IMG/VR virus record: IMGVR_UViG_3300032243_000867
Location: 192,001-256,000 of that record
Direction: 5' to 3' (one strand)
From: a virus
Taxonomy: Duplodnaviria > Caudoviricetes
DNA: 64,000 bases
A program made the translations under genes and the position numbers. Positions 3,402 to 63,921 of this stretch are shown here, piece by piece. Each line of letters opens with the position of its first letter. Position 1 is the first letter of the stretch. Below the pieces are notes generated by a model. That model was not told the DNA's origin, did not search any database, and was given only the letters and a program-made list of their open reading frames with translations.

Positions 3402-3463
3402 CCCTGAATCTCACACCACGACGGTCTCTTCCATCATCCCCGTGGGTACCAAACAGAACCCAC

Positions 3464-6913: not shown

Positions 6914-6915
6914 CC

Positions 6916-8589: not shown

Positions 8590-8632
8590 CCGTCTATCCC
8601 CCCCCCCACCCCGTAGGGAAGGTTCCATCTCA

Positions 8633-9001
8633 ATGAGCGACCAAGCACTTCGTTCCAAGCTGATCCGTCTGGCTCACAACAACCCGGAGCTCCGTCCGCA
8701 TCTCATGCCCCTGCTGGGCAAAACGGCAGGACCGTTCGAGTCAGTCGATTCGAGCAAGTCGGATTACGGGGCGGCGCAGAGAGCCATGAACGACGCCATC
8801 GCCTACCTGCGGATGGCTGAAGAAAACGCGAGCAAAGCGTTCGACCACGCCATCGACGGGGCCGAACAGAACCCCGGGCAGGGTCATAACCTCTTGGTCA
8901 AGAGCATTGCCCAGGTCCACGACGCCCTGGAGGACTGCCGTCGCTCGCAGAGCCGTCCGATGCACGAAGCCTTTGAGGCTCTGACGAACCTCGCCCGCTA
9001 A
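8633..9001 (+). CDS. Helical protein with LRSKLIRLAH leader
   Basis: Leader shared with the 33196 and 38299 ORFs; CTAT box upstream. Confidence 0.7.
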   Translation: MSDQALRSKLIRLAHNNPELRPHLMPLLGKTAGPFESVDSSKSDYGAAQRAMNDAIAYLRMAEENASKAFDHAIDGAEQNPGQGHNLLVKSIAQVHDALEDCRRSQSRPMHEAFEALTNLAR

Positions 9002-9004
9002 CGA

Positions 9005-9559
9005 CTAGCGAGGGCGCTTCACCCAGCACGGTAGGCACACCGGGACGTACTCCCCCGCCCCGCCTACCAGCACGTCCCCGTCCTTCTTGACCCGGCACGC
9101 CGTCCGGGTGGCATCCCCCCCGCACGCGCAGATCGCCGTGAGCTTCTCCACCCGGTCCGCGAGGCACATGAGGTGCCCCATCGGCCCGAAGGGTCCGCCC
9201 TCGCTGGTGAGGTCCAAGCCCGCCGCGACGACGTGAACACCCTGCTCGACGAGCTTCCCCACCCACAGCGGAAGGTCAATGTCAAAGAACTGGGCTTCTT
9301 CGATCACCATCAGGTCGGGCGCGGGCGTGGGCATCGCCCGGTACAGGTCCGCCGAGCTTGTCACCACGCGGGGCTTCACGTCCAGCGATTCGAGGGTGAG
9401 TCCGCTATGGGTGACGACCTGTCCTTTGCTGCGAGTGTCTATCTTGGGCACCACCACGTCCACGCGCTTCTTGGAACGGAGCGCGCGAGAGACGTAGCGG
9501 TAGTACAGGGTGGTAGACTTCTCGGCGTACATGGGGCCGGTTACGACGGTCAGCGGCAT
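9005..9559 (-). CDS. tdk: Thymidine kinase (type II)
   Basis: VTGPMYAEKST, IEEAQFF, AGLDL, CACG..CLPC zinc ligands. Confidence 0.92.
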   Translation of the reverse strand: MPLTVVTGPMYAEKSTTLYYRYVSRALRSKKRVDVVVPKIDTRSKGQVVTHSGLTLESLDVKPRVVTSSADLYRAMPTPAPDLMVIEEAQFFDIDLPLWVGKLVEQGVHVVAAGLDLTSEGGPFGPMGHLMCLADRVEKLTAICACGGDATRTACRVKKDGDVLVGGAGEYVPVCLPCWVKRPR

Positions 9560-9595
9560 GGCGTCCTAACGATACGTCTATTGCCCCCGCACTGT

Positions 9596-9772
9596 GTGGG
9601 GAACAGGTTTCCACAGGAAGATCGCTGGTGCTCTCTCGAACCCGAAGACCCCTGCGAGCACAAGTACCTGCGGGTAGGAATCAACGGGTTCGTTTGCGCG
9701 GTGTGTGAGGAGCCCGTGCGGTTTTCCCCGCACGATCTGGTAAAGGACGACGGCCCCCCATCACGCACCTGA
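9596..9772 (+). CDS. Small Cys/His protein, possible zinc ribbon
   Basis: GTG start after CGTCTATTG; CEH..CAVC. Confidence 0.4.
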   Translation: MGNRFPQEDRWCSLEPEDPCEHKYLRVGINGFVCAVCEEPVRFSPHDLVKDDGPPSRT

Positions 9773-9880
9773 ACCCTACCAATTCTCCGCGAGAATCGCA
9801 CGGTATGCGGGCTACCGCGTCCTCATCCTTGGTGAAGTAGGAGAGTCCCTCCGCCCGCCTACGGGTTTTTTGCTCGGGCC

Positions 9881-10309
9881 TCATGGACCTTTTCGGACGA
9901 TGTCCTCGGCCTCGGCCAGAACGGACTTCGGCACCTTCCACGTCTTCTCCTCCGCGTACCAGCGGGCTCCGATGGCCTTGAGCTTTTCCTTCACGTCGTA
10001 GGTGCGACCGCGCACCGGGACGTAGTCGTCTTTAGACGACACCCCCGACAGGATGCGCGTCTCGTCCAAGGAGAGGTACAGAACCGCCCCGCGCAGCACC
10101 AGCCCGTTGTTTCCGCCACGGGCACGGTAGAACCGGGTAGCCCGTTCGTTCTCGGGAATCTCGAACGGTTGCGCCTCCCACCAAGTGGAACCGTCCGGGG
10201 CGAGGTGCTTGTAAGTACCCGGAGCGCCGAGAAGTTTGGCAATCTCTCCTTCGCTCTTCGGGGGGACGATCTCAGAAGTCTCGCCCGAGACGGGAATCAA
10301 GGTGGACAT
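9881..10309 (-). CDS. Hypothetical protein with C-terminal DUF5710-like domain
   Basis: GRTYDVKEKLKAIGARWYAEEKTWKV; GGGCGTAAC 7 nt upstream. Confidence 0.65.
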   Translation of the reverse strand: MSTLIPVSGETSEIVPPKSEGEIAKLLGAPGTYKHLAPDGSTWWEAQPFEIPENERATRFYRARGGNNGLVLRGAVLYLSLDETRILSGVSSKDDYVPVRGRTYDVKEKLKAIGARWYAEEKTWKVPKSVLAEAEDIVRKGP

Positions 10310-10342
10310 GACCGACGTTACGCCCGCGCGTAGGGTAGAGGA

Positions 10343-10636
10343 ATGAACTTGACGGATTCGGAAGAAGTCAGCTTGCGAACCCGCGCCAACCTCGGGCGCA
10401 GCTACTTGGGAGTTCCGGCGTTCTTCTTGACCATCGTCGGGGCAACCGTGGCGCTCGTTGCCCCCGTTGCTCACGAACCCGACAAAGCCGTGTACGGCGT
10501 GTACACCTTGGGAGCGGCCTTCGCCCTCTACCTACTCGGTGAGGTGGCGAACTTTCGGCGGGCGCGTGCTCGGGCCATCGTGCAGATGATTGACCGGGAG
10601 CGCGCCTTCAGTTCGTCTATGACCCCCTTGGAGTAG
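10343..10636 (+). CDS. Small two-TM membrane protein
   Basis: Two hydrophobic segments; AGAGG RBS. Confidence 0.55.
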   Translation: MNLTDSEEVSLRTRANLGRSYLGVPAFFLTIVGATVALVAPVAHEPDKAVYGVYTLGAAFALYLLGEVANFRRARARAIVQMIDRERAFSSSMTPLE

Positions 10637-10643
10637 GGAACGA

Positions 10644-10772
10644 ATGCGAAAAGCAGCACAGGCACGGCCCCGTCGAACGAACAGCCCGGAAACGAAAGAG
10701 AAAATGCGCCAGTCCGCTATCGAGGCGCATCGCGCTCGACGAGAGAAAACCTCAATGATTTCGGAGGGTTGA
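10644..10772 (+). pseudogene. NUMOD3-only relic of a homing endonuclease
   Basis: 42-aa ORF containing NSPETKEKMRQSA; A-rich composition. Confidence 0.5.
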
Positions 10773-10773
10773 G

Positions 10774-11655
10774 ATGTCGTTTGGCTGGCTAGGGTTTTTT
10801 CGCGCCGGGGCGTGGCTCTCCTACCGCACTTTCGTCCTTAATCAACGCCGGGACGTAGGCGCGCGTATCACCGCTATCAACGCGGAACTCGACCGCATTG
10901 GGTACGTTCGCATTCTGTACGCGGCGAACGCGAACAACCGGAACGTTCTGACCGAGAGGCGCATCGGGCTAGACGTTACGCCGAACACTTCCATCGAGCA
11001 GCTACTCCGCGCCTACATCGCGGCGGGGGGCAACCCCTTCGACATCTCGATGTTTCTCACCCCAGAATCTATCGAGGTGACGGAGAACGCTTCGGAACCG
11101 AACGCAGACGGGACGCTCTCCCAGACCTCGGTGAGACAGACGCAGCCCTACGGGGGGATCGCTACCTCTGCCACTACCGACCCTGTGACACCCGGCTTGT
11201 ATATGGGAGGTTGGCTCCCCCTGTGGAGGTATCCCCCGCGCCGCTTCGGAAACACCGTAAGCTACACGGCCCAGGCTGCGGACATGACCCGGACGATTCA
11301 CGCGACGCGGGAATGGGTGACTCAGGAGATTCGTACCCTTCGGAACGATCTCGAAGCCCGGATCATCAAGCTCATGGATCTCCGCGAACAGCTCACCAAG
11401 GAGAGGGACGAGCTCCTACCGCAGTCCGTCGCCGGGGCGGTGCCGAGCATTCCATGGTCCGACAACGGTCAGTTTGCCGTGAGCCACAACGTCGCCCCTA
11501 TCGTCGAGGGTATCGACGCGGTTTTCTTTCCGACGAAGCTCCCGGACGGGAGGCGGGATTTCGACAACCCGCGTGTGTCGGGTCCGAACCCAGAGAGTCC
11601 GATGCTCCTGGACGACGCGCCGAACGGCGAAGAGGATTTTTGCGCGATTGGTTGA
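10774..11655 (+). CDS. Hypothetical virion-associated protein
   Basis: GGAGG RBS; lies directly before baseplate genes; coiled-coil near the C-terminus. Confidence 0.6.
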   Translation: MSFGWLGFFRAGAWLSYRTFVLNQRRDVGARITAINAELDRIGYVRILYAANANNRNVLTERRIGLDVTPNTSIEQLLRAYIAAGGNPFDISMFLTPESIEVTENASEPNADGTLSQTSVRQTQPYGGIATSATTDPVTPGLYMGGWLPLWRYPPRRFGNTVSYTAQAADMTRTIHATREWVTQEIRTLRNDLEARIIKLMDLREQLTKERDELLPQSVAGAVPSIPWSDNGQFAVSHNVAPIVEGIDAVFFPTKLPDGRRDFDNPRVSGPNPESPMLLDDAPNGEEDFCAIG

Positions 11656-11691
11656 AGCGGTTTCCCCGCTATTGCACGCCCACGGTGAACC

Positions 11692-12795
11692 ATGTCGCTC
11701 GACGTGCAATTGGCTTTTTTGTGCCCCCACCTGATCGGTGAGGAACGGGTTGCTCTGGGTAGCGACCGCCGCACGTTGTACACGTCAAAGCCCATCAACG
11801 GACCGTCCCTTCTACGAGTGCAGGCCAACGACGGGACGGACATCTCCCCTTACACGGGGCTTGTGACGCTCGCTTCGGTGAAGTCGTACCGCCGCGAGCC
11901 GTACAAGATCACCCTTGCGACCCGAACGCTCGTCGTCGTCTCCCAGACGGGTACGGCCACCGTGACGTTTCCCCAGGGGTACCTATCGGCGGCGCGGGTA
12001 ACGGACGCCCTCAACGCCGGGGCGGGGAGCCTCATCGTGGCGGCAGCTTCCACAACGGGCTACGTCACGATCACGGACAAGGGCAATCCCGGACCCGCTT
12101 CGCGCGTGCAACTCTCGGGAAGCGCGCTGGAACCTCTCGGGTTCGACCTTCAATCGGGCGCGAAGGGGCGCACGGTTGTCCCGCCGTGGAGGCTGTACTC
12201 TCGGAACGTCGTGAACCCGCAGGATGCCGTGGATTCCCTCGGGTACTACGTCGGGTTCGATGCCCCCGTATCGCAGAACCCCTACTTCACGGTGACGTAC
12301 ACCGTGGCCCCGAACCTGTGCCTTCGGTGCCTGACCACGGAGGTCGAGAACGATTACCGCTTCGACGCGCAGGGCGCGGCGCTGGTGGTGAAGGACGAGA
12401 ACCTCCTGTACCAATCCGTCCTGAAGTACCTTCTCACCGACATCAAATCGAATATGTACCACCCGTGGTACGGAAGCACTCTGAAGTCCCTTATCGGCAC
12501 GAAGGTTCTGAGCGGCGCGGCGGCGGGTATCCGTCAGTCGGTGAGCACGGCGCTGTCTACCTTCAAGGCGTTGCAGGACGCCCAAGCGAAGTACCAACGG
12601 ATCACGGCCAAGGAGAGACTTTTCTCCGTGGACAACATCGCCGTGGCTCAGTCCCCCGTTGATCCGACGGTGTTCTACGTTCAGGTCAGCGTGCGAAACT
12701 ACGCGAACGAACCCGTGGACATCACCATCGCGTACGCGGCACCGGGGACGTTCGCGCTACCGGGCACCAACCAGATCTCACTAGGGAACTATTGA
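11692..12795 (+). CDS. Baseplate wedge protein with C-terminal gp25/gpW-like domain
   Basis: LLYQSVLKYLLT..HPWYGSTL..IG..ERLFSVDNI.V....TVFYVQVSV. Confidence 0.8.
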   Translation: MSLDVQLAFLCPHLIGEERVALGSDRRTLYTSKPINGPSLLRVQANDGTDISPYTGLVTLASVKSYRREPYKITLATRTLVVVSQTGTATVTFPQGYLSAARVTDALNAGAGSLIVAAASTTGYVTITDKGNPGPASRVQLSGSALEPLGFDLQSGAKGRTVVPPWRLYSRNVVNPQDAVDSLGYYVGFDAPVSQNPYFTVTYTVAPNLCLRCLTTEVENDYRFDAQGAALVVKDENLLYQSVLKYLLTDIKSNMYHPWYGSTLKSLIGTKVLSGAAAGIRQSVSTALSTFKALQDAQAKYQRITAKERLFSVDNIAVAQSPVDPTVFYVQVSVRNYANEPVDITIAYAAPGTFALPGTNQISLGNY

Positions 12796-15700
12796 TGGCC
12801 ACCTCGGTACAGATTCTCGGTCCCGACAATGTCCTCCGGGAAACCCTCATCTTTAGCACGACGCAGACCGCCCGGTTCTTCACGGGGGTTCTCCCCGATG
12901 ACACGGTGGACGTGGAGGTGTCCCTCTTCGGCCAGCCTTTCACCACGGACCCGACGCTGGTCGCGTTTCAGGGCACGGGCTTCGTTGTCCCGAACCCCAC
13001 GGCATACCCCGGCGGGTTGGACCTTTTCTCGGGCGACAACGAGATTCAGGTCCGGGCCGTGTTCCTCTCGGGGACTCGTTCGCCCGCCGCGACCGCCACG
13101 GTGCATCTCCTTCCGGCGAACCAGTCCGAGACTTTCTCCCCTCCCACGGGCGTCACCCTCGAACGTCTGGACGGGTCGGTGAAGGTGACGGTGCTCGGGC
13201 TCTCGGACGCCCGCATTGTCGGATACAACTTCTACGCTTCGTCCACGCAAGGGGGCGGGACGGCGGGTTACTCTCTTCTCAACGTGAACCGGGTGACTAC
13301 GGGGACGCCCGTTCAGAACGTCACCGACCTCTACACCCTCACGGCGGACAACGTAGCTCAGACGGCCACGCCCCTCTACTACCGGGCGGTTATCACGCAA
13401 GAGAACAGCGCCGAGACGGTTCTATCGACGGACGTAGACTCGCGGGTGGAGATCCCCAGTGCGGTGACGGCTCTTCGGTCTACCGTGACGGTTTCCTCCG
13501 TCGAGACTCTCACCTACTACAGCTTTCAGCACAACCGCTCTGCCTCGGCGCTATCTATCCCCGCCACGATCTTCAACGGGGTGTTCGCTAGCACCCCGGC
13601 GACGGACCTTCTGTACTACGTCTCCACGGCGATCTACTACGACAGCATCCTTCGGGTGGAGTACGAGTCGTACTACTCCACGGAGGTGACGGGGGCTCCC
13701 GCGCAAGTACGCCAACAGATCAACGGCATCACCGCCGTGTCTCGGCAACAGGTTCTGGAGAACGCCATCGCTAGCATCTACCGGCAAAACCCCGACATCG
13801 CGGTTCAACCGGGCTCGGTGGTGCGGGATACGTTCCTCGACCCGTTCACCACGGAGGCCGAACGTCTCCGTCTCATGCTGGACTACGTGTACCGCGCGAG
13901 TTCGTTCGACACCCTGCTCTTGGTAGACGACCCCTCGGGATCGGGAGTCTCTCAGCCCCCGGCTTCCTCCCCCTACAAGACCGCGCTAGCGGCGGCGCTG
14001 TTCTACGCGAACGTGGACGACGTGCAAAACGTCATCGACGGAAGCTTCGACAAGATCGCCGCGAACTTCGACGTGTTCCGCCTCGCGGGCACCCCCGCCG
14101 TGGGGGAGGTTCGCTTCTACACCTCCGCCGTTCCCTCCCAGACCGTTCAGATTCCTCTGGGAACGGTGGTGAAGGGCGGTGGGGTTGATTTCCGAACTAC
14201 GCGCTCCGCGTCGATGCCGGTGTCCCAGCTCGCTTCGTTCTACAACCCCTCCACCCGCCTTTACTCGGTCACGGTGCCGGTGCGGGCGATCAGCGTGGGG
14301 GCATCTACGAACGTCGGCCCGAACCAACTCACCAACTCGAACGTGTACGGGATGTCCGTTACGAACGATGCGGCGACCTTCGGCGGCGCGGACATCGAGA
14401 CCAATGCGCGTCTCGCCGCCCGCGCCCGGAACTCCCTCGCTTCGGTGGATACGGGTACGACCCTCGGGTATCTCCAAACGGCAGCGGGGGTGCCGGGAAC
14501 GATCCAGAACATGGTAGTCCGGGCGGGCGACCCCCTCATGCAGCGGGACTACGACACCACTCTTCAGCGGCACTTGGGCGGGAAGGTAGACGTGTGGGCG
14601 CGGGGGCTCCGCACCGTCACCGTCACGGACTCCTTCGCGTTCACCTACGAACGCCGAGACGGCGTGCAGTTCGTCGTGATCGGCAACCCGATGAACTACG
14701 TGTTCCGAGCGGTGAGCGAAGAGGTGACGCCCGACAACCCTCTGGCCGCGATGCTGTACTACCCTTCGCTGGACCTGGGGCTGAAGAACGTGACAACGGG
14801 CACGACGTTCAACCTCACCAACGTCACCTACCTGAACTTCAATACCATCCAGCTCGACGCGACCCTCACGCAACCGCCCGTCACCCTCACGGACATCGTG
14901 CTAGGGGACTTCCGGTTCCGCCTCGGAAACAAGCACACCTTCGTGCGCCAGCCCGTGAACGCTGTGTCTTCGGTGGTCGGAGACGTTACGGGGTCGCTAG
15001 ACTTCGACTTGTTCTCTCTGGTTCACCCGAACGGGCCTCTGGGCCTCGGGTGCAGCACCAAGGCCGGAGACTACCTCCAGATCAACCAGTCCACCGACCC
15101 GGCGGCGGTTACTCCCTCGGGGAACCTCATCCCGGTTTCTTCCGAACCCCACGTCATCACCGGGTTCTACACGGAGTACCTGTACTTCCTCGGTGCGGAG
15201 ACTCTCTCCATCGTGGTGAAGGACAACACCAACTCGATTACCTACAAGGGTCCCTACGATCCCAGCGGGTCGCCCGATTACCTCATCGTTGAGGGCACCT
15301 CGACCACGGCGGCGGGTATCAAGCGCACCTCGACCAGCGCGATCCCGGACGGCGCGGTCATTCTCATCTCGTACAGCTACTACGAGAACTTCGCCGTGAC
15401 CTACACGACGAACTTGGTGACCTCGGTGCTTCAGCAAGAGCTTGACGACATGGCTCACGCCACAGCGGACGTTCTCGCAAAACAAGCCGTTCTCACCCCG
15501 GTGGACATCACGGCTACGGTGATTCTGAAGAAGGGCGTGGACCGCGTGAACGCGGACCTCGCGATCCGCAACAATCTCCAGTACCTCGCGGGGACGCTCA
15601 AGCTCGGTGACCCGATGCGTCGCAGCGACGTGATCGGTGAGATCGACGGGACCGCCGGGGTGTCCTACGTCGTTGTCCCGCTCACAAAAATGGTACGGGC

Positions 15701-16160
15701 GACGGGGTGCCAGATCGTGCGGAACGATCTGGCTACGGGCTCCTTCGCGGACTCGTTCCTCATCCCCGATTGGTCCAACGGCCAGTATCAGACGTGGCTG
15801 ATTCTCGAAGAGCTCACGGCCCCGACCGCTACGGGGGGCGGGCCTATCAACGAGTTTCGTGGGGTGTACCAAGACGACAACGAGCTCACCCTTCAGTTGT
15901 CCGCGCCGCAGAACCTCGCCCTCGCTGGAGGGCAAGCCTACATCATCGGCAGCGAGGGTCAGGTGATCCCCGGTTACGGAACGGGTGCCGTGAAGAACCG
16001 TGTGCTGGTCTCCCTCCCCGTAGGGGACACCCCGACGAACCACACGTACTGGTGTACCTACACCACGTCGGAGGACGTGGGCGACAAGGACATCGACCCG
16101 AACTCGATGGAGTTCTTGGTGCTGGGTGATGTGCAAATTACGTTTGACGAGGATAGATAG
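12795..16160 (+). CDS. Baseplate J-like (P2 gpJ/T4 gp6-type) large wedge protein
   Basis: A.GEVRF..IPLGTVV..FRTT..VPVRA...GAS.NVG..VTN.AATFGGAD.ET..L.AR; DMAHATADVL. Confidence 0.85.
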   Translation: MATSVQILGPDNVLRETLIFSTTQTARFFTGVLPDDTVDVEVSLFGQPFTTDPTLVAFQGTGFVVPNPTAYPGGLDLFSGDNEIQVRAVFLSGTRSPAATATVHLLPANQSETFSPPTGVTLERLDGSVKVTVLGLSDARIVGYNFYASSTQGGGTAGYSLLNVNRVTTGTPVQNVTDLYTLTADNVAQTATPLYYRAVITQENSAETVLSTDVDSRVEIPSAVTALRSTVTVSSVETLTYYSFQHNRSASALSIPATIFNGVFASTPATDLLYYVSTAIYYDSILRVEYESYYSTEVTGAPAQVRQQINGITAVSRQQVLENAIASIYRQNPDIAVQPGSVVRDTFLDPFTTEAERLRLMLDYVYRASSFDTLLLVDDPSGSGVSQPPASSPYKTALAAALFYANVDDVQNVIDGSFDKIAANFDVFRLAGTPAVGEVRFYTSAVPSQTVQIPLGTVVKGGGVDFRTTRSASMPVSQLASFYNPSTRLYSVTVPVRAISVGASTNVGPNQLTNSNVYGMSVTNDAATFGGADIETNARLAARARNSLASVDTGTTLGYLQTAAGVPGTIQNMVVRAGDPLMQRDYDTTLQRHLGGKVDVWARGLRTVTVTDSFAFTYERRDGVQFVVIGNPMNYVFRAVSEEVTPDNPLAAMLYYPSLDLGLKNVTTGTTFNLTNVTYLNFNTIQLDATLTQPPVTLTDIVLGDFRFRLGNKHTFVRQPVNAVSSVVGDVTGSLDFDLFSLVHPNGPLGLGCSTKAGDYLQINQSTDPAAVTPSGNLIPVSSEPHVITGFYTEYLYFLGAETLSIVVKDNTNSITYKGPYDPSGSPDYLIVEGTSTTAAGIKRTSTSAIPDGAVILISYSYYENFAVTYTTNLVTSVLQQELDDMAHATADVLAKQAVLTPVDITATVILKKGVDRVNADLAIRNNLQYLAGTLKLGDPMRRSDVIGEIDGTAGVSYVVVPLTKMVRATGCQIVRNDLATGSFADSFLIPDWSNGQYQTWLILEELTAPTATGGGPINEFRGVYQDDNELTLQLSAPQNLALAGGQAYIIGSEGQVIPGYGTGAVKNRVLVSLPVGDTPTNHTYWCTYTTSEDVGDKDIDPNSMEFLVLGDVQITFDEDR

Positions 16161-16179
16161 CTTATACCTCTCGGAGGGT

Positions 16180-17256
16180 ATGCGGTTCATCTACGACGGT
16201 CACGCCAATGAGGGTGGAATCTACCGGATCACCAACCAGATCAACGGTCGGTTCTACATTGGCAGCACTTGTCAGTTCAAGGTGAGATGGGCAACCCATC
16301 GCCGTGAACTACTCAAGGGGAACCACTGTAACGCATTTCTCCAGAATGACTTCAACAAGTGTGGCGCAGATGCGTTCGTTGTTGAGGTGCTGGAGGTGAT
16401 CCCGGACAGGGACTCCCGCCTCTGGGCTGAAGGTGCGCTGATCCGCCAGCACTTCGGAAAGGGGTGTTACAACCTCGAACCTGAAGTAGGCCCCCACTAT
16501 CCAGTGAACTCACGGCCCCGGAAACCGCATACCGAGGCAACCAAGGAAAAAATTCGTCAGGCCAAGCGGGGTAAGAGACTCCCCCCAGAGGTCGAGGCAC
16601 AACGTGTAGATGCTGTCCGAGCATCCATGGCAAAACTGAAAGCCACCGGAGGAACCCGTGATTGGGGGGCATCCAAGCGTGGGGTACCTCGAACCGAGGA
16701 AGCCAAGGCCAAAATGCGGGAGTCCGTTGAGCAGCGCCGACAGAATGGGACACTGGTTCTGTCCCCAGAGCAGAGGGATCACCTTCGTCAGGTCAACCTC
16801 GGCAAAGTCTACGGTCCGCGTAGCGAAGAGACAAAGGCGAAACTGCGGGAGGCCTGGGAGTATCGTCCCAGGGTAGCAACCCGTGGTCCTATGAGCGAAG
16901 AGACCAAGGAGAACATCCGGCGGTCCAAGCTCGGGACCAGCCACACGGAAACGGCACGGGCTAAGATGTCAGCATCACACAAGGGCCGACCGTTGTCCGA
17001 CGAGACAAAAGCCAAAATGTCCACCGCACGGAAGGGTCAGGGCACGGGCCGACGCCACTCAGAGGAGACTCGGGCCAAGATGTCGGCTGCGAAGAAAGGC
17101 CGACAGGGACGACCCCTGTCGGATGAGACCAAGGCCAAAATCTCTGCCGCACGGAAAAATCGTAGGTCTGTGCCCCACTCAGAGGAAACGCGGGCCATGA
17201 TGTCACTCGCACAACAAAACCGTAGGGCATCCGAGAAGAGTGGGGCTGCACAGTGA
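16180..17256 (+). mobile_element. Free-standing GIY-YIG homing endonuclease with about 9 NUMOD3 repeats
   Basis: GGIYRITNQINGRFYIGST..FKVRW..H..GNHCNAFLQNDFNKCG; repeated (H/L)SEET(K/R)AKMS. Confidence 0.92.
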
Positions 17257-22895: not shown

Positions 22896-22931
22896 CCCGC
22901 CGTTACCTTGCCTATACTGACCTCATATTAT

Positions 22932-23087
22932 ATGGCAGCGAAGGTTCAAGTGCTCGTCGGATTCGATGCAGACCAGATTGAATGGCTCAAGTCTGAGAGC
23001 CTTCGACGCCGCGTGCCCAGAGCTCAAGTTGTTCGCGAGCTAGTCCTCCGAGAAATGACTCCGCAACCGAAAACGCCCGTCGAATGA
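22932..23087 (+). CDS. Ribbon-helix-helix (CopG-like) protein, 51 aa
   Basis: MAAKVQVLVGFDADQIEWLKSESLRRRVPRAQVVRELV; ATGA overlap with tnpB. Confidence 0.7.
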   Translation: MAAKVQVLVGFDADQIEWLKSESLRRRVPRAQVVRELVLREMTPQPKTPVE

Positions 23088-24322
23088 TCTTGCGGGCCTA
23101 CAGGGTAGAGCTCGACCCAAACGACCGGCAACGGACGGCCTTTATCCGTCATGCCGGGTCCGTGAGGTTCGTCTACAACTGGGGCCTCGCTACTTTGATG
23201 CAGGACTACGCGGAGCGGAAAGCTGCCACCCCCGAAGGCGAAAAGGTGAAGGGTGGGTTGCGACCTCTCGATCTACAAGCCCGCCTTCCGGCGTTGAAGA
23301 TCGAGCACCCGTGGCTCGCGGAAGTTACCGCACAGTCTCTCCAGATGTCTGTTCGCAACCTCGACCGTGCGTTCCGAGGCTTCTTTCGACGGGTGAAAGC
23401 GGGTCTCACTCCCGGATACCCCCGCTTCAAGAAGCGCGGGTTGACCAAGCCCGCGTTCCAATTTGCTCAGAAGGTCAAGGCTACGGGGACTCGCGTTTGT
23501 CTCCCGAAGATCGGACCCGTGCGGTTGAAGCAGCGGGGCTACATCCCCGCAGACCTCCCCCTCAAAACCGTCACCGTCAGGGAGGTTGTGGGGAGGTGGT
23601 TCGTAACGGTTCTGGTTGAGGTTCCAGACCCACCGAAGGTCGAAACGACCGGGGGGATCATTGGGATCGACCTCGGCGTCAAGACCCTCGCCACCCTATC
23701 GGACGGAACGGTCTACCCCAACCCGAAACACCTTGAACGGTCTCAAGATTCCCTAACGCGCCTTCAACGGAAGCTCTCCCGTCAGCAGAAAGGATCGAAC
23801 AGACGGGCCAAGACCAAGGTCCGCATTGCGAAGGCCCACGCACGGATCAGTAACCAACGGGTGGGTAGCCTCCACAAGATGACCAGCGAAGTCGTGAAAA
23901 CCAAGCGACCTACGACTATCGTCATCGAGGACTTGAACGTCGCGGGAATGACCCGGAATCGTCGTCTAGCGAGGGCGGTGAGTTCCGCATCGTTCGCGGA
24001 GATTCGTCGTCAACTAACATACAAGTGTGACTGGCACGGGGTGAAACTCGTGGTAGCAGACCGCTTCTATCCGTCCAGCAAGACTTGCAACGGCTGCGGG
24101 GCGGTGAAGAGCGACATCACCTTGGGGGAGCGTACCTACGTCTGCGACCTTTGCGGGTATGTTCGAGACCGAGACGTGAACGCGGCTCTCAACCTACGGG
24201 GTTGGGGAATGAATTTTCTGGCCGGGGGAACCCCGGCGACTGCTCGCGGAGGAAACGTAAGACCCGAAGCAATTCGGGCAGATTCCGTTGAAACGAGAAC
24301 CGATCAGGGGACGGCCCCGTAA
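23084..24322 (+). CDS. tnpB: TnpB RNA-guided endonuclease
   Basis: HTH_OrfB N-terminus (AYRVELDPN..RFVYNWGL); RuvC GIDLG, VIEDL, DRDVNAA; CxxC..CxxC. Confidence 0.95.
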   Translation: MILRAYRVELDPNDRQRTAFIRHAGSVRFVYNWGLATLMQDYAERKAATPEGEKVKGGLRPLDLQARLPALKIEHPWLAEVTAQSLQMSVRNLDRAFRGFFRRVKAGLTPGYPRFKKRGLTKPAFQFAQKVKATGTRVCLPKIGPVRLKQRGYIPADLPLKTVTVREVVGRWFVTVLVEVPDPPKVETTGGIIGIDLGVKTLATLSDGTVYPNPKHLERSQDSLTRLQRKLSRQQKGSNRRAKTKVRIAKAHARISNQRVGSLHKMTSEVVKTKRPTTIVIEDLNVAGMTRNRRLARAVSSASFAEIRRQLTYKCDWHGVKLVVADRFYPSSKTCNGCGAVKSDITLGERTYVCDLCGYVRDRDVNAALNLRGWGMNFLAGGTPATARGGNVRPEAIRADSVETRTDQGTAP

Positions 24323-24364
24323 GCATCGGAGTTCAACGTATCCCGCCTATAAACGGGAGAGGGT

Positions 24365-26346: not shown

Positions 26347-26400
26347 CGGCGGGTTTCCCTTCTATCCGCGTACCGTTGCGGAACTCCTCACAGGTGAACG

Positions 26401-29637: not shown

Positions 29638-29642
29638 ACGCC

Positions 29643-32600: not shown

Positions 32601-33155
32601 ATCTACCCGCAGACGGACTACACCTCGGGCTATGTCCCGGTCCAGTCGTTTGGCGCGGCGGCGAACTACTCGGTGCTTACGGGCGACCGGGTATACATCC
32701 GCGCGTTCGACGCGGACGCGGCCAACGCGGGCCTATCCACGGTGACCTTCCGCCTGTGGGGCGTGGAGCTCACGGACTTCCAATACGCAGCCCTCACGGC
32801 ACCCGGCGCGGTTGGAATGGCCGTGATGGTGAAAGTGCCGGGGCTTACGACGTGGATGGATGCGGGGCGGGCAGACGGCACGGGTCCGTCGAAGCAGGAC
32901 ATTGCCCTCGACGGCGCGGGGTGCTTGGTGAGCTCCACGGCGGCGACGGACACCGTGTCGCAGATTCGCTACACGGACGTGACGGTGAATCTCTCGCCCG
33001 CCGCGCTGTTCATCAACGGCGAAGGCAAGTGCCCGGTGCTGGTGAAGGTCATCATCAAGGACCACGTAACGGGCAAGGCGCTGAACTTCGTGGGCGCTGG
33101 CGAAACGGCGGCGACGGACACCCTTCGGGGCCTCGTTGGGATCGAGATCCTGTGA
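29643..33155 (+). CDS. Large virion structural protein, about 1170 aa
   Basis: H...PTGAHPASAI and NVQGAINELAA fibre motifs; ATG follows the previous stop. Confidence 0.7.
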   Translation: MPRTNDPLGILTGGGLAPPGSVSSSSIAPGEVGPVSETLGAHVGNPTGAHPASAISILDPYTRYFMGPNVQGAINELAALVPPPMGGVGSEGVAWLGSTNVGTPDWGILKLHDGILPFTGNTLADPHGVYPYYYRAPVTDSGVGLTGTGIEPATDPTFNVVDGLYTGGGNGAAHAGFATLSSYGAGYPTWRILSAIANPAAVVSGIVSPSDRGVLALVKWPSGDEPAPAPAANVGDIQARCVAALLLGKGILDNGCDGEPGGVFVEATGGLRAIASAKYNVNPAAGYTFTLDLSSVGGPPAPVTFTAVAGAPANPYEFQVGGGAAATAANFALALNTLYYSEVLAAITNGTDTVTLYLRTPGTVGNAPTTTITCTAAPGAIGVTNFNGGTDAILSPYAFPGRAAGQYNLEEIHAGLSGTTGTDPFFNPAAGQVRLLTDPAAVTFAPATVTGGLPIFGGTSKAIGTVTPLSGFPFSLGGGTDGNFFAYRLPYLKDYSVASGLVYTPAAEKTRFTTKLAPASAGALTQAGDYDDFTTDFWAFQIARYRHRFVLTPPPVVALTREDGNYALVHFKKEAYFEAYVRDGVVPASDQLWSVNLVRWTGNVPPYDLTENLVTSTPGASAANPVNRSEVFEDKNGTFVPAPAGLLSFTLGTAAVPTRMYCSGIEYYVPIDVTTVNTPNVAIINLAFTYNGVFDRGYRSHDKVPTGGPLSTDNRRYALNQNPVFISLASFSYEGDEALGTSTLATGSPGAVTFPAELGEIRRQRIEFGYADLTPAATLDPAVGDPASYAFSVAPYTKGIYFTGDPNTPVFTTDAKVRVFLRRPLVVDGVTGYSEPIAGANVPNSTGDVILYHSMQEGNATATVPYGNPSNAALRGLSKEKDREERFLDEIYRYPENWAPLAVPADVSQLQGPGLPFGPAPVSVPVRPDSALSYDGWYLIGYNANALTTGGGDPNLNNGLQVAGLPPRDPSYKEGLLSPAPSRGLLIYPQTDYTSGYVPVQSFGAAANYSVLTGDRVYIRAFDADAANAGLSTVTFRLWGVELTDFQYAALTAPGAVGMAVMVKVPGLTTWMDAGRADGTGPSKQDIALDGAGCLVSSTAATDTVSQIRYTDVTVNLSPAALFINGEGKCPVLVKVIIKDHVTGKALNFVGAGETAATDTLRGLVGIEIL

Positions 33156-33195
33156 CCCGTTAGAACGACGATATCCCCGCATTCTCGGAGCCCCC

Positions 33196-34713
33196 ATGAC
33201 TACCCTTCGCACCAAACTGATCCGGCTGGCCCAGGTGCGGCCCGCTCTTCGATCCCAACTGTTGCCCCTGCTCACCAATCGGGTAGCAGGTGAACCGACC
33301 CCGTTGGAGGTTTGGGAGGCTAGCCGTCCGATGATGCGGGCTGCGATCACCCCGGCTTTTTTTTTGAAGATCAAGCGGTCTCTGAGAACGGCCCCCCCTG
33401 CGGTTCTCGATTTTTTCAACCTCTACAACTGGCTGCAAAAATCGGCTGTGGGGGCACCCCTCCCTGATGGCGGGTTTCAACCCAAGATCAAGGAAGGAAT
33501 GGTGGCTCTCTCTCGCTCCCTGCCTCGAATCATGTCTCGGGACATGGCCAACGAGGCCGCGGATGTGTTGAAGGACACCTACGCCCGAACCGTCATGCCC
33601 ATCAAGATGATCGACAAGGGGCGGGGGAGTAAACGAAACTTCGTTGACGTGTCGGACGCTTTGGCGAGTGGGCTCGCCATCGTTCTGAACTCTGCGGGGC
33701 TACCCACGGAGACCTTCGACATCCCCGGCACCGTCAAGTTCGTCGGGCTTCGATCCTCTCAACCGGAGGAGATGAACCCCCCGGTGCCCGAAGCGGTGGC
33801 CCAATCCTTTACCCCGGAAGAAGAATCCCTACCGGGCAAGGCTTTCCAGAACACGAAGGACATCGACGAGCTCTACGAAGGAGTGTCGCAAGCAGAGGAG
33901 TTCCAGCTCGATCTGCTGAACCGAGGAACGGGTCTGGACTCCAAGATCGGAGCGAAGGTGGTCTATCCGGGTCAAAAGGTGGACCTCATGGCTGACGCGG
34001 GGCCGGTTATTATGATCGGCCCCCGCAAGAAGCGGGAGCGGGTGATCCAAAAAACCCAGGCCGAAGGGGAGGACGTGAACTCCGCTCTGGACTTGGTGAG
34101 GTCTACCGTCGCCGTGGACAACCTCTCTGACGTGCCCCGGGTCGTGAACCTCCTCCGAGAGATGGGGGTCGAGTTCGCCCGAAAGCCCAAGAACAGGTTC
34201 AGCAAGCCTACGGAAGTCGGGTACCGGGACCTGATGTTCAACGTCCGGTATCCCAACGGTCACGTTGGCGAGATTCAAGTGAACGTGAAGTCCATGCTCG
34301 TCGCTAAGGATCTCGGGCACAAGCTTTACGAGAGGGTTCGCGAAATCGACGCGAAGAAGAAGGCAGAAGGCAATACGGAGCTGACCTTTGAGGAGCAGCA
34401 AACGGTTGATCTCGCCAACGACTCGCAGAAGCGGCTCTACGACGAGGCGTGGCGTCAAGTGTCGGGCGGTGTTGGCGGGGGGTTGCCGAGGCTCGCTATG
34501 GAAAAAACCGCCGAGTCCGTCAAATATTTCGAGTACGAAGACAGACCTGCTCGGGTTGTCCGCGGCAATTTCCCGATCCTCATTACGAGCAAGGGGGATG
34601 AGGTTGTCCTCTACGATCAGCAGAAGTTCTACCTGGAGGCCCATCGCATCTCGGAAGCCCAGTACAACATGATGGTCTTCTCGATCTTCCGACCGAGCTA
34701 CAAGAACGGGTGA
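33196..34713 (+). CDS. RelA/SpoT-like (small alarmone synthetase fold) nucleotidyltransferase with LRTKLIRLA leader
   Basis: PRKKRERVIQK, DLVRSTV, NRFSKP..GYRDL, GEIQV, GHKLYE. Confidence 0.7.
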   Translation: MTTLRTKLIRLAQVRPALRSQLLPLLTNRVAGEPTPLEVWEASRPMMRAAITPAFFLKIKRSLRTAPPAVLDFFNLYNWLQKSAVGAPLPDGGFQPKIKEGMVALSRSLPRIMSRDMANEAADVLKDTYARTVMPIKMIDKGRGSKRNFVDVSDALASGLAIVLNSAGLPTETFDIPGTVKFVGLRSSQPEEMNPPVPEAVAQSFTPEEESLPGKAFQNTKDIDELYEGVSQAEEFQLDLLNRGTGLDSKIGAKVVYPGQKVDLMADAGPVIMIGPRKKRERVIQKTQAEGEDVNSALDLVRSTVAVDNLSDVPRVVNLLREMGVEFARKPKNRFSKPTEVGYRDLMFNVRYPNGHVGEIQVNVKSMLVAKDLGHKLYERVREIDAKKKAEGNTELTFEEQQTVDLANDSQKRLYDEAWRQVSGGVGGGLPRLAMEKTAESVKYFEYEDRPARVVRGNFPILITSKGDEVVLYDQQKFYLEAHRISEAQYNMMVFSIFRPSYKNG

Positions 34714-34734
34714 GATAGAGCCGGGTGTGACCCT

Positions 34735-35913
34735 TCACGCGGGCTCGCGCACCCCGTAGACGCGGGGCTTGTCCTCGGGCACCCCGCCACCGACCCACAC
34801 GGGGGCGACCCACTTCAGCGACGCCTTCCGCATCGCAGGGTCGATCCTCTCGCCAGCCTCGGTCTTTCGCGGCCCCACCCGGTAGGTATGCCAGTGGCCC
34901 CGGCGAATGTGCCCCTTCACGGTGCGGGTGCCCGTGAGGTCCGTGTCGCCGCCCGCACTCGTTTCGATGGTCGGGCCGATCCACGTCACCCGGTACTTGG
35001 GGAGGGCGTCGAGGTCGCGGGCGAGCTTCTTGGCGTCCTTGCCGTTCTTGTGCTTCTTGCGCCCCAGCGCAGTCTCTAGCTCGCGGCGCTTCCCATCGTT
35101 GTCGGCGCTCTTGGTCTCACACGACGCGCTGTTGATGTACAGCAGGGTGTTGATCACCACCCGCAGGAACGCCTTGACCATGGCCTTGACCTCCCGCGCG
35201 AGCTCCTCGGATTGAGGGATGTTCGCGAGACGGTCACTGATGTTCGCACCGCGGTCATCGAGGATGCCGTTCACCCGCGCGTCGAGGTCCATGCGGGTGA
35301 CGGCGGACTCCAGTTCGATGTTCCGCAGGGTGCCTTCGCGAAGCTCGGCCAAGTCGAGGCGCTTCTCCAAGTCGCCGTCGAGGTCCACGGTGCCGCCGTG
35401 ACCCAGCTTCATCGAGAACCAGAACGTCGCATCGTCCGTGGGAAACTGCGACCGCTCGTTCGCCGCGCCCCAGATGAGGACGCTCATCACCCCCGGCTCG
35501 GCGGGGTCTTCCATGACGTAGGCACCTTCGACCCGGTGCCACAGGGTGTCACTTCCGCCCCACGCCTTGAGCTTGCTGTCGGGCGTGGCGAGGTAGAAGC
35601 AGGGGAAGGGGAAACGGATGTGCTCCGCACTCACCTCGGAGAGCGAGGTGTTGGCGAACGCCTCCTGCATTCGCGGCCCCAGCACCACCACTTGCTGCCC
35701 TCCGCGCTCGTAAGCGACGGTAGACCGCATCATGTTGTAGGTGGTGCTGTAGGCGCTGACCGTCTGCGCGGGCAGGGGGTTGTCCCCCTGCTTGTTGAAG
35801 GGGTCGTGCAGGATCTTCGACTTGATGTCTTCGGGGAACACCCGCAGCGGGTTGCGCGGGTCCTTGCGGATCATCTCGTAGTGGACGACGGGGCGGGGGA
35901 GGGAAGCGGTCAT
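34735..35913 (-). CDS. Hypothetical protein with C-terminal HxRRGHW motif
   Basis: GHIRRGHWH..KWVAPVWV; ATG 7 nt after GGGCGTAAT (alternative start 35922). Confidence 0.65.
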   Translation of the reverse strand: MTASLPRPVVHYEMIRKDPRNPLRVFPEDIKSKILHDPFNKQGDNPLPAQTVSAYSTTYNMMRSTVAYERGGQQVVVLGPRMQEAFANTSLSEVSAEHIRFPFPCFYLATPDSKLKAWGGSDTLWHRVEGAYVMEDPAEPGVMSVLIWGAANERSQFPTDDATFWFSMKLGHGGTVDLDGDLEKRLDLAELREGTLRNIELESAVTRMDLDARVNGILDDRGANISDRLANIPQSEELAREVKAMVKAFLRVVINTLLYINSASCETKSADNDGKRRELETALGRKKHKNGKDAKKLARDLDALPKYRVTWIGPTIETSAGGDTDLTGTRTVKGHIRRGHWHTYRVGPRKTEAGERIDPAMRKASLKWVAPVWVGGGVPEDKPRVYGVREPA

Positions 35914-35963
35914 GGTCTTCATTACGCCCCTCTGGACGTTGGAAGGCCGAGGATACTGACAGG

Positions 35964-36461
35964 CTAGAAGCCGAGATACTCGATCTCGGAGTCGTCCAGC
36001 GTGTGGATCACGGCGCGCGAACGAAGCTCCCCCGTCTTCTCGTCCACGAAGGGCTGGTCGTCCTTGAGGTTGCGGAGGATGAGGTCGAGGCGCTTCACCT
36101 CTGCCGTCTCGGAGGTGATGAGCTCCTTCTCGGTCACGAGGTTGGCGATCACCCCAGCGGGCACCACCGTCTCCTTGGTCTGCTTGCCCGAAGAAGTGTT
36201 GCTGTTCGGGATCGAGTAGGACATCTTGATACCTCCGCCCCGGCGCTGGTCCTGCGAGTACTGCACGATGAGGTCAGACAGGGCCTCGGGGGTGATCTCG
36301 TTCTCGCGGGTGATCTTGTCGATGCGGCCCCGGCGCTCCTCGATCTTCGCTCGCACCGCCTCGACCTTGCGGTTCATCGCCTCGCGGATCTGCCCACTCG
36401 TGAACTTGTTGTACTGAACTCCACGGAACATGTCGTCTACCTCGTTGAAAGCGCCCATCAT
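35964..36461 (-). CDS. Hypothetical coiled-coil protein
   Basis: AAAGGAG RBS; GGGCGTAAC upstream. Confidence 0.7.
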   Translation of the reverse strand: MMGAFNEVDDMFRGVQYNKFTSGQIREAMNRKVEAVRAKIEERRGRIDKITRENEITPEALSDLIVQYSQDQRRGGGIKMSYSIPNSNTSSGKQTKETVVPAGVIANLVTEKELITSETAEVKRLDLILRNLKDDQPFVDEKTGELRSRAVIHTLDDSEIEYLGF

Positions 36462-36483
36462 GGGTGCTCCTTTCCACGGGTAG

Positions 36484-36756
36484 TTACGCCCGCCATCGTA
36501 GGCGCGCGGGGCCTCGTAGGCGCTTCACCAGCCTCTCGGCCCGTTGGGCGTCACCCCTCCCGTCGAACGGCCCGTACACCACCCCAAGCTCCCACGGTCG
36601 CCATCGTTGGGTGAACCGCGCGCCCCCAGAGAGTTCTCCGTTGTGCTGGCGCACCCGCCGGGGCACGTCGTTGGTACACCCGACGTAGGTGACGGCGCGG
36701 ACGGTGCTGACGAGGACGTAGACGTGCCACGGGCTAGTGCTTCTATCGCCGTTCAT
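36484..36756 (-). CDS. Small GIY-YIG nuclease, SLX1/UPF0213-like
   Basis: [36 protein letters not shown]. Confidence 0.85.
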
Positions 36757-36760
36757 AGGT

Positions 36761-38125
36761 ATGGCCCTCTACCCGCAGCCGCCGTTGAACACGATGGTCG
36801 TGTCGCCCTTCGGCAAGGGCGTGTTGGACATCCGTTGGGATGACCCTTCGCTTATCGGCGCGAACACCGAGTACAACGTGGTGGGCGTGAACGTCTACCG
36901 TAGCGAGGCGAGCGACCGGGGGCCGTTCAAGCGGCTCAACTCTTACCCAGTGAGCGGGACGTTCTTCCGCGACTTCACCGACATCGCACAAGTGTCGCGG
37001 GAAGTCATCCCGTGGGACGGCGGGTGGCAATCGAAGGGCGACGCACCGAACGTCCTGCGGTGGACGTTCAAGACCCGGTACCCCATCGCGAAACCGCGCT
37101 TCCAAGGTGTGCCCGCGAACTCCCCGGACGACGTGCTGGTGACCATCGACGGGGTGCCCGCGTGGGTGGGGTCGGTATTCGGGCAGACGGGTGAGGTCAC
37201 GATTCAGGCCATCACGGACCTAGACCCCCGCGACGACCGCAACGTGTACTCCCCGCTTCCCGGCCCGAACAGCGAGGTGGCCGTCACCTACTACACGGCC
37301 CGGAACATCTTGTTCCCGAACACGATGATCGACCGCAAGCTGTTCTACCGTGTGACCACGGTGGCGGTCGCGGAAGGATCAACCACGGGCTACGTTGAGA
37401 CGCCGTTGGATCAGACGATGCCCGCGTCGGATATGCAGATCGAGCAACTCGACTACATCTGGCGCGAGGCCATGCGTCGCAACCGCTGGATCTTGGAACA
37501 GGGCGGGGAGCGCGTGAAGCTCTTCGTTCAGAAGGTCAGCGGGATGCCCTGCCCGTGTCGCAGCGAGACCGATCCGCAATCCCGCGCCTACAACAAGCAG
37601 CCCAGCAACAGGTGCCGGGTCTGCTACGGGACGGGATTTGTTGGCGGGTACGAGGGTCCGTACGACATCTTGGTGGCCCCAGACGACGCCGAGAAGAGAA
37701 TCTCGCAGACGCCGAACGGACGGAGAAAAGAGCACAGCTACGAGGTGTGGATGAGCTTCTCGCCCATCATCTCGATGCGCGACTTCGTCCTCAAGCAGAA
37801 CAACGAGCGGTACAGCGTTGGCCCGGTACGCCGTCCCACGAACCGTGGCAACGTGATGCAGCAGCACTTCAACATCGCGTACATCGACCCGAACGACATC
37901 CGGTACGACGTACCCGTGGAAATCGTGCTGGCGTCGCCGAACCTCCCGTGGCCGCAGACCCGGTACCCCTACCGCCCGTACCGTGAGACCTACGACAAAC
38001 AGACGGGAGCACCGTGGTCCGTCACGCCCGACGCGGTGTTCCCCATGTCCACGGACAAAGGCAACGTGCCGGATGGCGTGCAGATCAGAGGACGTGCGGG
38101 CACTTTTGAAAATCAGAACTACTAA
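36761..38125 (+). CDS. Virion head/neck-associated protein with FN3-like N-terminus and CxC..CxxCxGTG zinc motif
   Basis: LDIRWD..GVNVYRS; [16 protein letters not shown]; CTAT box upstream. Confidence 0.55.
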
Positions 38126-38136
38126 ACAGGTGAACA

Positions 38137-38286
38137 GTGGTCATCAGCTATCTATCACCGGGTCTGTGCGAGGCGTGGTCCACCAAGGGCCTCGGCACCT
38201 ACGCAGACCAACCCTTCCCCAAGGGGTCGGTGCTTGCCGTCTTCGGCGGCGAGGTGCTTCTCCCCCTACGTCGCCAACTTGATTGA
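38137..38286 (+). pseudogene. Truncated SET-domain fragment, 49 aa
   Basis: YLSPGL..KGLGTYA..PFPKGSVLAVFGGEV matches the SET N-terminal strands, then stops. Confidence 0.55.
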
Positions 38287-38298
38287 GGAAACACGAAC

Positions 38299-38694
38299 AT
38301 GACACCACTTCGATCCAGACTCATCCGCCTTGCGTATCAGAACCCGTCGATGCGGCCCCACATCCTCCCGATGCTAATGGAAGGAGATCGCACGGCGACG
38401 GAGAACCACAAACTCCCTGAAGATCCTTGGCGGTACTTCAAGAAGGTACCGGGCACCATTCTCGTGGACCTGAAGGACCTCACCCCGACCCGTGCTCGCG
38501 AGAAGGGGATCGCCAATGCCAACAGGTATATGTGGCAAGCGTACAACGGCGACACGGAGAAGAGGAAGCCCATCTCACTCAAGGACAACGGAGACGGCAC
38601 CTATACGGTTCTCGACGGCAACTCGACCTACGCGAATGCCGTGGCAAGCGGCTGGAAGAAGATCCCCGGCGTGGTCGAGGAGTCTGATCACTAG
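38299..38694 (+). CDS. ParB/Srx-like domain protein with LRSRLIRLA leader
   Basis: PISL..NGDGTYTVLDGNST..A..GW..IP; GAGGA RBS. Confidence 0.65.
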   Translation: MTPLRSRLIRLAYQNPSMRPHILPMLMEGDRTATENHKLPEDPWRYFKKVPGTILVDLKDLTPTRAREKGIANANRYMWQAYNGDTEKRKPISLKDNGDGTYTVLDGNSTYANAVASGWKKIPGVVEESDH

Positions 38695-63520: not shown

Positions 63521-63702
63521 GCCCGACGTTACGCCCGTGGATGGGAGTCGTGACTGCGATTGAGGGTGGGACGTTCTACTACGAGAACGAACACGGGTCG
63601 GAAGTAGCTGGCGGTGACCCTACGGCATGGTGGCGATGAACTAGGGGGTCATCCGGCTGGCCCATGCCAACCCGGCGTTGCGACCGCACCTGTTGCCGTT
63701 GC

Positions 63703-63921
63703 TCACCCGTTGGTGAGCAGGGAGACCACGGCGGGACCGTGCTTCAGCGGGCACGTCTCCCATGCCCCGGTCGTGTACGGGTACACGCCGAAGAGAGCGC
63801 CCGTGAGGCGGCACTCTGGCGGGTGACCGTCGATGGCCACGGAGTCGTCGCGGAAGGGGCACGAGTTGCACCCTTCGACGGACACCCCCGTCACCGTCAC
63901 CGTAGGCACCTTGGGGGTCAC
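63703..63921 (-). CDS. Small Cys-rich protein
   Basis: CNSCPF..C..CPL. Confidence 0.55.
   Translation of the reverse strand: MTPKVPTVTVTGVSVEGCNSCPFRDDSVAIDGHPPECRLTGALFGVYPYTTGAWETCPLKHGPAVVSLLTNG

Follow-up and report, generated by a model that had tools for sequence, protein, structure and literature searches.

We describe a short peptide tag that recurs on otherwise unrelated proteins encoded by a stretch of viral DNA 64,000 nucleotides long (the window), which covers bases 192,001-256,000 of a single contig of 265,895 bp (G000; IMG/VR virus record IMGVR_UViG_3300032243_000867; 64% G+C and 59% complete by CheckV). The tag is about 28 residues long, is predicted to fold as a helix-Pro-helix hairpin, and is carried by many different protein bodies in a clade of very large, uncultivated phages. 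It is very probably a portable address or docking tag that binds a common partner. This reading is well supported because selection acts on the peptide itself, the tag is modular and by prediction flexibly attached, its charged and hydrophobic positions are conserved, and it is used in multiple copies throughout the lineage. The full statement, in which the assembling prohead would be the destination of the docking tag, is our best single guess and is offered tentatively.

A constant peptide on interchangeable bodies

Tag copies in G000 were located first with a regular expression and then with a hidden Markov model (HMM) made from 18 tags (alignment A1), run against the six-frame translation. 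The HMM gives exactly 10 matches, all on the + strand, with scores of 45-74 bits and E-values from 1.8e-21 to 1.5e-12; the next match below them has 7.7 bits and an E-value of 0.96. Four of the ten copies lie within the window (Table 1). A preliminary description of the window had reported three + strand open reading frames (ORFs) that share a starting peptide, plus an orphan copy, and each is found exactly where it was placed. All four copies are real, but the contig holds ten, and two of the nine intact ones are internal rather than leading (residue 90 of 165 in P0018 and residue 444 of 537 in P0022). In seven of the ten copies the tag starts at residue 4-6 of its ORF. The orphan, 23 codons with no body attached, lies in the gap separating two minus-strand genes and is probably a decayed tag gene; no syntenic counterpart is found in five related phage records.

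These five relatives, IMG/VR records of 167-485 kb, contain 8-15 tag copies each. Their HK97-type major capsid proteins (MCPs) are 87-99% identical to that of G000; therefore, G000 and the five relatives are one clade. Clade contigs of 472,929 and 485,040 bp, the latter 92% complete, indicate a genome size of roughly 450-485 kb.

The tag follows the consensus x-LR[ST][KR][LIV]IRLAHxxPxLRxxLLPLL-K-x-A-[AG], with a core of ~23 residues and ~28 residues in all. Positions L6, R7, I11, R12, L13, A14, P18, R21 and P26 are invariant or nearly so, H15 is also conserved, and the net charge is basic. Synonymous codons vary freely among the copies (CTA, CTG or CTT; CGT, CGC, CGA or AGG) while the amino acids stay fixed, and therefore selection is on the peptide rather than on a DNA repeat. 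Conservation of the peptide goes far beyond what chance would give. In an AlphaFold2 model of a natural two-tag protein, each tag appears as a helix-kink-helix (helices 3-16 and 18-30; predicted local distance difference test, pLDDT, 70-85) in disordered surroundings; with a predicted template modelling score (pTM) of 0.23, the model is uninformative on the relative placement or packing of the two tags. The predicted form of the tag is thus an exposed basic amphipathic hairpin, flexibly joined to interchangeable bodies. Because it is basic and amphipathic, the tag alone should need a partner surface.

The preliminary description had also pointed to K/R-x-A soon after each intact copy in the window (GKTA, NRVA and DRTA), and the junction is a general one. 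The clade set comprises 62 proteins with extracted tag ORFs (the relatives have 56 such ORFs, and G000 has nine intact carriers), and in 54 of the 62 a [KR]-x-A starts 0-4 residues past the tag, where about 5% would be expected. The longer form [KR]xA[AGS] is present at the junction in 40 of the 62; beyond it, conservation ends.

The bodies joined to the tag vary widely among carriers. When the tags are masked and the remaining sequences compared by BLASTP (E < 1e-4), the 62 carriers from the six genomes fall into 48 body families. Pfam assigns little to these bodies: DUF5710 is found twice, and there are single weak matches to RelA_SpoT, SH3, bactofilin and MazE-like families. At the site of the P0001 gene, a locus flanked by genes for a CCA-adding enzyme and a thymidine kinase, a relative has a tag identical at 29 of 35 residues, followed by a body with no relation to that of P0001. 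The P0001 protein has metagenome orthologues, as well as relatives that resemble it in the first ~35 residues only. Likewise, the body of P0024 has no homologue in the five relatives, where it is matched through its tag only. From one relative to another, then, a body may be replaced or missing where the tag is kept, and such fast turnover next to an unchanging tag is typical of accessory or conflict genes. The idea of a portable module on unrelated proteins, already put forward in the preliminary description, is thus borne out both by the number of body families and by the body swap at a syntenic locus.

The bodies encoded in the window can be described as follows. That of P0001 is small and helical and belongs to no Pfam or PHROG family. 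P0024 has a RelA/SpoT-like nucleotidyltransferase region at residues ~264-385 (PF04607, E-value 2.2e-5, 25.1 bits with a cut-off of 27) and weak matches to Tas1 and RelA in the PDB, so that its earlier label as RelA/SpoT-like is moderately supported, with a Pfam score below the cut-off. The label of ParB-like, given earlier to P0025, is not confirmed: the resemblance to ParB_N is weak (E-value about 0.09 with both Pfam and PHROGs), phmmer finds no match in the PDB, and a Foldseek search of the PDB with a single-sequence AlphaFold2 model (pLDDT 57.6) returns no usable match.

The tag itself could not be assigned to a named family, in agreement with the preliminary description. Pfam and PHROGs show nothing over the tag in any of the nine intact carriers, nor any similarity to known families of internal head proteins or of proteins bearing a capsid-targeting sequence (CTS); a profile search of the PDB gives chance matches only, the ESM Atlas search does not find the tag, and a full-text literature search with tag strings finds no paper. 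The possibility that the tag is a known folded domain, which would speak against an address tag, was also searched, and only LRV-like matches below threshold were found. The LRV families (PF01816, PF25591) do share with the tag a helix-helix unit and the local pattern hR-x-A-x-x-NP-x-h-x-x-x-L-x-x-L. Membership is rejected, however: the best match on the tag, to LRV_2, has an E-value of 0.011 and 16 bits against a cut-off of 27 bits; genuine LRV repeats in two carriers (one with an E-value of 3e-11) sit in the body, after the tag; and tags are single or 30-300 residues apart, separated by a linker or domain, rather than contiguous tandem repeats of ~24 residues.

Distribution and position of the tag

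A profile search of 1.84 billion representative metagenome proteins returns 3,570 matches at E <= 1e-3 and 571 at E <= 1e-10. In IMG/VR, the tag is found on large viral contigs, multiple times per contig, and it is conserved in lineages of widely differing composition. Among 50,697 deposited phage genomes, it is present in LR745208.1 only (an uncultured, unannotated phage of 485 kb, with the tag in 11 places), and thus in none of the cultured phages in that collection; the window has no megablast match to cultured phages either. Among 185,579 bacterial and archaeal species genomes there is one match, an ORF of 81 aa (L119:4998-5243) near feoB-like genes at the end of a 25.9-kb contig in a Myxococcales metagenome-assembled genome. 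This match could be a mis-binned phage fragment, and is at most a hint at the host.

The tag is not strictly an N-terminal leader. In the five relatives, 49 of the 56 tag ORFs carry it at the N-terminus (starting at residues 1-10) and seven carry it internally or at the C-terminus, so that about 13% of clade copies are in these other positions. In a wider set of 176 proteins with 372 tags, 140 tags are N-terminal, 60 are at the extreme C-terminus and 172 are internal; this set is biased to multi-copy proteins, as those score highest. Most of the high-scoring carriers in the wider family have 2-7 tags each. Many of these multi-tag proteins are small, with one tag per end and an acidic linker between; others are long and of low complexity, rich in K and E (K/E/D), with tags at intervals, some in tandem ~37 residues apart. 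The disordered, charged linkers share further motifs, CEKLPEGGMRDNCEKK, SDAxKPWxxGEFTQQE, EEGKPADPTxNMSxEDKKKW and FxNPxTxxxVKFxSLPxxxQKxI, which look like a kit of linear motifs (carriers are listed in Table 1).

Possible destination of the carriers and gene context

In the proposed mechanism, the tag would dock its carriers to the scaffold core or inner shell of the assembling prohead, and the head protease would remove it at the K-x-A-(A/G) junction. The carriers would be packaged and later ejected with the DNA, like T4 IPI-III and Alt, which are packaged by means of a CTS. The cargo would consist of 8-15 accessory proteins per genome, among them the RelA/SpoT-like enzyme and many small orphan proteins, in a set that changes fast between relatives. 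We infer the capsid destination and the cleavage more weakly than the binding of a common partner.

The head module of G000 was located with PHROGs (Table 1), and Pfam searches for Gp23, Peptidase_S77, Terminase_6C and Phage_capsid gave no matches. In G001, the 485-kb relative, a tag gene of 134 aa has the scaffold gene on one side and the decoration and MCP genes on the other (L083:2501-2905; G001 316628-317032), at a position where G000 has only a gap of 197 nt; its place within the head module weakly favours a link with the head. Another weak lead comes from the protease. In the proteome of 83,163 residues, [LIVM]IRLA is confined to tag proteins but for one further occurrence, in the prohead protease (chance alone would give 0.4 anywhere). 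There, 20 residues from the C-terminal end, the tail EARTLIRLA(K/S)L resembles tag helix 1 and forms a helix conserved across the clade. Homology between EARTLIRLAKL and the tag is not claimed; the match is below HMM noise and lies in a conserved domain of greater extent. An invariant K-L-A-A at residues 27-30 of the MCP N-terminus and repeated K-K-A-A in the scaffold-like protein might, together with the K-x-A-(A/G) junction of the tag, reflect a shared cleavage rule, a weak indication from a motif low in information. Co-folding of the MCP (alignment A5) with the tag (alignment A6) gives a score of 0.00, which counts neither for nor against binding.

Several results weigh against the prohead as the destination. 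By the tag HMM, the terminase, portal, protease, scaffold-like protein, 226-aa protein and MCP of G000 have no tag; the homologue of the scaffold-like protein (P0199) in G001 has none either. Tag genes are scattered, with five of the ten in the first 45 kb of G000 among GroEL, ribonucleotide reductase (RNR) and helicase genes, and they are not clearly more frequent around the head genes. Neither the copies in internal and C-terminal positions (7 of 56 for the clade, 232 of 372 for the wider set) nor the proteins with 2-7 copies are explained by a removable N-terminal propeptide, and the K-x-A-(A/G) motif may be just part of the folded motif. The sole public phage record with the tag is the uncultured, unannotated LR745208.1, so carriers cannot be placed in a virion. 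Of the packaging or ejection signal suggested in the preliminary description, then, the portability stands, while untagged head proteins and scattered genes speak against the capsid as its target.

A further point on the same side is the presence of a second peptide, (A)RRVAxR[YFH]L, with 12 matches in the predicted proteins of G000 where shuffled sequences lead one to expect 0.8. Its sites are N-termini, C-termini and domain boundaries, and its carriers are disjoint from those of LRSKLIRLAH. They include a fusion of a 2H-phosphoesterase with a type IB topoisomerase (TopIB) encoded between the portal and the protease. As a head tag, this peptide has a claim no weaker than that of the first, and could be the real one. 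The same interval (G000 92792-96804) encodes an HAD phosphatase of the 'Swiss Army Knife' RNA-repair type in addition to the fusion protein, which has 1,156 aa and includes a coiled coil; both may be virion enzymes.

If the partner is not in the virion, the tag could dock its carriers to some other hub, a protein or assembly of phage or host, and so gather diverse effectors at one place in the infected cell; a factory for replication or transcription, a site at the membrane or cell pole, a chaperone and a protease are examples. Modularity and the conserved L6, R7, R12, L13, A14 and R21 imply a common partner, but nothing links that partner to the head; tag genes have replication and metabolic genes as neighbours, the tag is missing from head proteins, and another peptide marks proteins encoded in the head module. 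On the other hand, no candidate hub was found, and the extreme N-terminal preference and the junction motif resemble processed virion cargo. The tag is nearly absent from the bacterial and archaeal genomes (one of 185,579), and therefore does not mimic a common host motif. We regard this account as possible, if rather unlikely.

Rather than binding a separate partner, tags might pair or stack with each other. Multi-tag proteins on charged linkers would then build a network, an inner body or something like a condensate, that single-tag clients join. The wider-family proteins described above (2-7 tags on long K/E/D-rich linkers, often one per end, some in tandem) have the architecture needed, and an isolated amphipathic hairpin needs a hydrophobic partner. 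Within the clade, however, carriers are nearly all single-tag and no multi-tag scaffold is seen; the two-tag AlphaFold2 model does not place the hairpins confidently (pTM 0.23), and the three invariant arginines suggest a specific acidic partner over hydrophobic self-packing. Self-association is thus an unlikely explanation. We are similarly doubtful of a broader sticker-and-spacer system, in which tags would bind each other or a repeated acidic partner (e.g. the scaffold), single-tag enzymes and anti-defence proteins would be packaged as clients and delivered to the next host, and the tag and (A)RRVAxRYL would make two orthogonal sorting codes in phages of ~0.45-0.5 Mb.

A small basic element of helix-turn-helix type could instead tether proteins to phage DNA or RNA, or act on its own mRNA leader. 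The net basic charge, the conserved R7, R12, R21 and H15, and a G+C hairpin directly upstream of several tag genes would fit such a role, but the tag matches no DNA- or RNA-binding family in Pfam or in the profile search of the PDB, has two prolines in its second half, and is attached to varied bodies with no evident need for DNA tethering, which makes nucleic-acid binding very unlikely. Finally, that the repeat has no function as a protein (being a DNA recombination linker, a translation-start cassette or an annotation artefact) would suit a promoter-like CTAT box that travels with many tag genes and the exchange of bodies behind a constant 5' end, but is largely refuted by free synonymous sites with fixed amino acids, the existence of internal and C-terminal copies, and retention of the peptide across lineages of very different composition, and hardly merits belief; the DNA-level repeat or recombination linker in particular is rejected because synonymous sites vary.

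The box just mentioned, [CA]TAT[CG]CC, precedes the ATG of five of the seven N-terminal tag genes by 18-39 nt, and is often followed by a CCCC-loop-GGGG hairpin ending at the ATG. It precedes only a handful of other genes, including the first gene past the portal. The preliminary description had noted a CTAT-type box upstream of two of the window genes, and both boxes are present (Table 1). Box and hairpin may be a phage-specific promoter or leader, and the arrangement suggests that tag genes are co-regulated, self-contained cassettes. The genes were also said to lie among structural genes, which is partly so; their neighbours also encode a CCA-adding enzyme, thymidine kinase, a nuclease, GroEL, RNR and helicases.

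Two homing-endonuclease genes and a transposase gene of IS200/IS605 type (TnpB-like; PHROG 506, E-value 7e-114) are interspersed with baseplate and large structural genes in the window (3359-4072, 16126-17256 and 23084-24322). On the minus strand, 47279-57961 is a single ORF of 3,560 aa with a G+C fraction of 0.87 at third codon positions. The prohead protease gene of G000 contains an intein at about residues 193-623 of the product, in which Hint and LAGLIDADG domains are recognised.

Table 1. Coordinates of tag copies, upstream boxes, second-peptide sites, head-module genes and linker-motif carriers
Feature	Position	Strand	Details
P0001 tag gene	window 8633..9001	+	122 aa; tag residues 6-28 (nt 8648-8716), then G-K-T-A (to nt 8728); 73.9 bits
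P0024 tag gene	window 33196..34713	+	505 aa; tag residues 4-26 (nt 33205-33273), then N-R-V-A (to nt 33288); 52.4 bits
P0025 tag gene	window 38299..38694	+	131 aa; tag residues 4-26 (nt 38308-38376), then D-R-T-A (to nt 38397); 61.9 bits
Orphan tag remnant	window 63648..63716	+	23 codons (GVIRLAHANPALRPHLLPLLTRW) bounded by TAG (63645-63647) and TGA (63717-63719); 45.5 bits, E 1.5e-12
CTATCCCC box and G+C-rich stretch	window 8594..8632	+	directly upstream of P0001 ATG; promoter-like
ATATCCCC box	window 33171..33195	+	25 nt upstream of P0024 ATG; CTAT box variant
Other box sites	window 3316; genome 19399, 20777, 92314, 136664, 163544		
(A)RRVAxR[YFH]L in the window	window 691-1296, 4069-6186, 6316-8589		
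Terminase	G000 86,743-88,590		PHROGs
Portal	G000 89,174-90,862		PHROGs
Prohead protease	G000 98,071-100,827 (L073:12071-14827)		918 aa, intein-interrupted
Scaffold-like protein (P0199)	G000 100,840-102,366		acidic, EEPKAEE repeats
226-aa protein	G000 head module		no tag
MCP	G000 103,265-104,146		HK97-type; 293 aa
Linker-motif carriers	L098:2501-3184		also P0030, P0032, P0036, P0109, P0027, P0041

Comparison with known targeting systems

If the tag is an address signal, sequence alone defines a large, fast-evolving set of proteins, 8-15 per genome and 3,570 representatives in all, that huge uncultivated phages send to a single place. Should this be the head, the carriers would be an injected 'first-strike' proteome and a rich source of anti-defence and host-takeover functions, including the RelA/SpoT-like enzyme, and the 28-residue peptide would offer a ready means of bringing foreign proteins into capsids. 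The tag is also a simple marker of this phage lineage and, with the second peptide, opens protein sorting in very large phages to direct tests.

The T4 CTS binds to the core of the prohead and is cut off by gp21 (PMC7411985). As with the CTS of IPI, IPII, IPIII and Alt, a short peptide at the N-terminus is the sole feature common to diverse, fast-evolving proteins, which in T4 act against the host (PMC3012670, PMC7411985). The likeness extends to a short conserved junction after the tag, here a candidate site for the head protease, and to the presence of one short terminal peptide on proteins of a single phage that are otherwise unrelated (10 copies in G000; 48 body families). Unlike the CTS, which is strictly N-terminal and single-copy, the tag is also internal, C-terminal and multi-copy (2 of nine intact copies in G000 are not N-terminal, with the proportions given above for the relatives and the wider set). 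It is a helix-Pro-helix of ~28 residues rather than a peptide of ~10, with no sequence similarity and no PHROG match, its junction is K-x-A-(A/G) rather than L/I-x-E, and its packaging and cleavage are putative.

Giant phages such as SPN3US (gp53, gp54 and gp47) and phiKZ load many head proteins by way of N-terminal regions that are cut by the prohead protease, which has a C-terminal targeting tail of its own (PMC7411985). Those propeptides differ from the tag in having 110-130 residues, belonging to paralogous families and ending in A-x-E, whereas here one short peptide is attached to ~48 unrelated bodies.

Outside these propeptide systems, the scaffolding protein of phage P22 docks by charge to the capsid interior with a C-terminal basic helix-loop-helix, and carries foreign cargo when fused to it. 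The tag fits a small basic helix-turn-helix shape of this kind, given its AlphaFold2 helices and conserved arginines, but the P22 motif is on the scaffold itself and the scaffold-like protein here has no tag. The encapsulation peptides of bacterial microcompartments and the cargo-loading peptides of encapsulins are short amphipathic terminal helices on flexible linkers that send unrelated enzymes into a shell; they can be N- or C-terminal, and repeated motifs are found on scaffold proteins. They differ from the tag in sequence and serve cellular shells, and no such shell gene was sought here. Address tags on phage head cargo are thus a known kind of element, represented by the T4 CTS and the SPN3US and phiKZ propeptides; what sets the tag apart is the peptide itself, its helix-Pro-helix form, its use at either end or internally, the multi-copy linker proteins and the scale.

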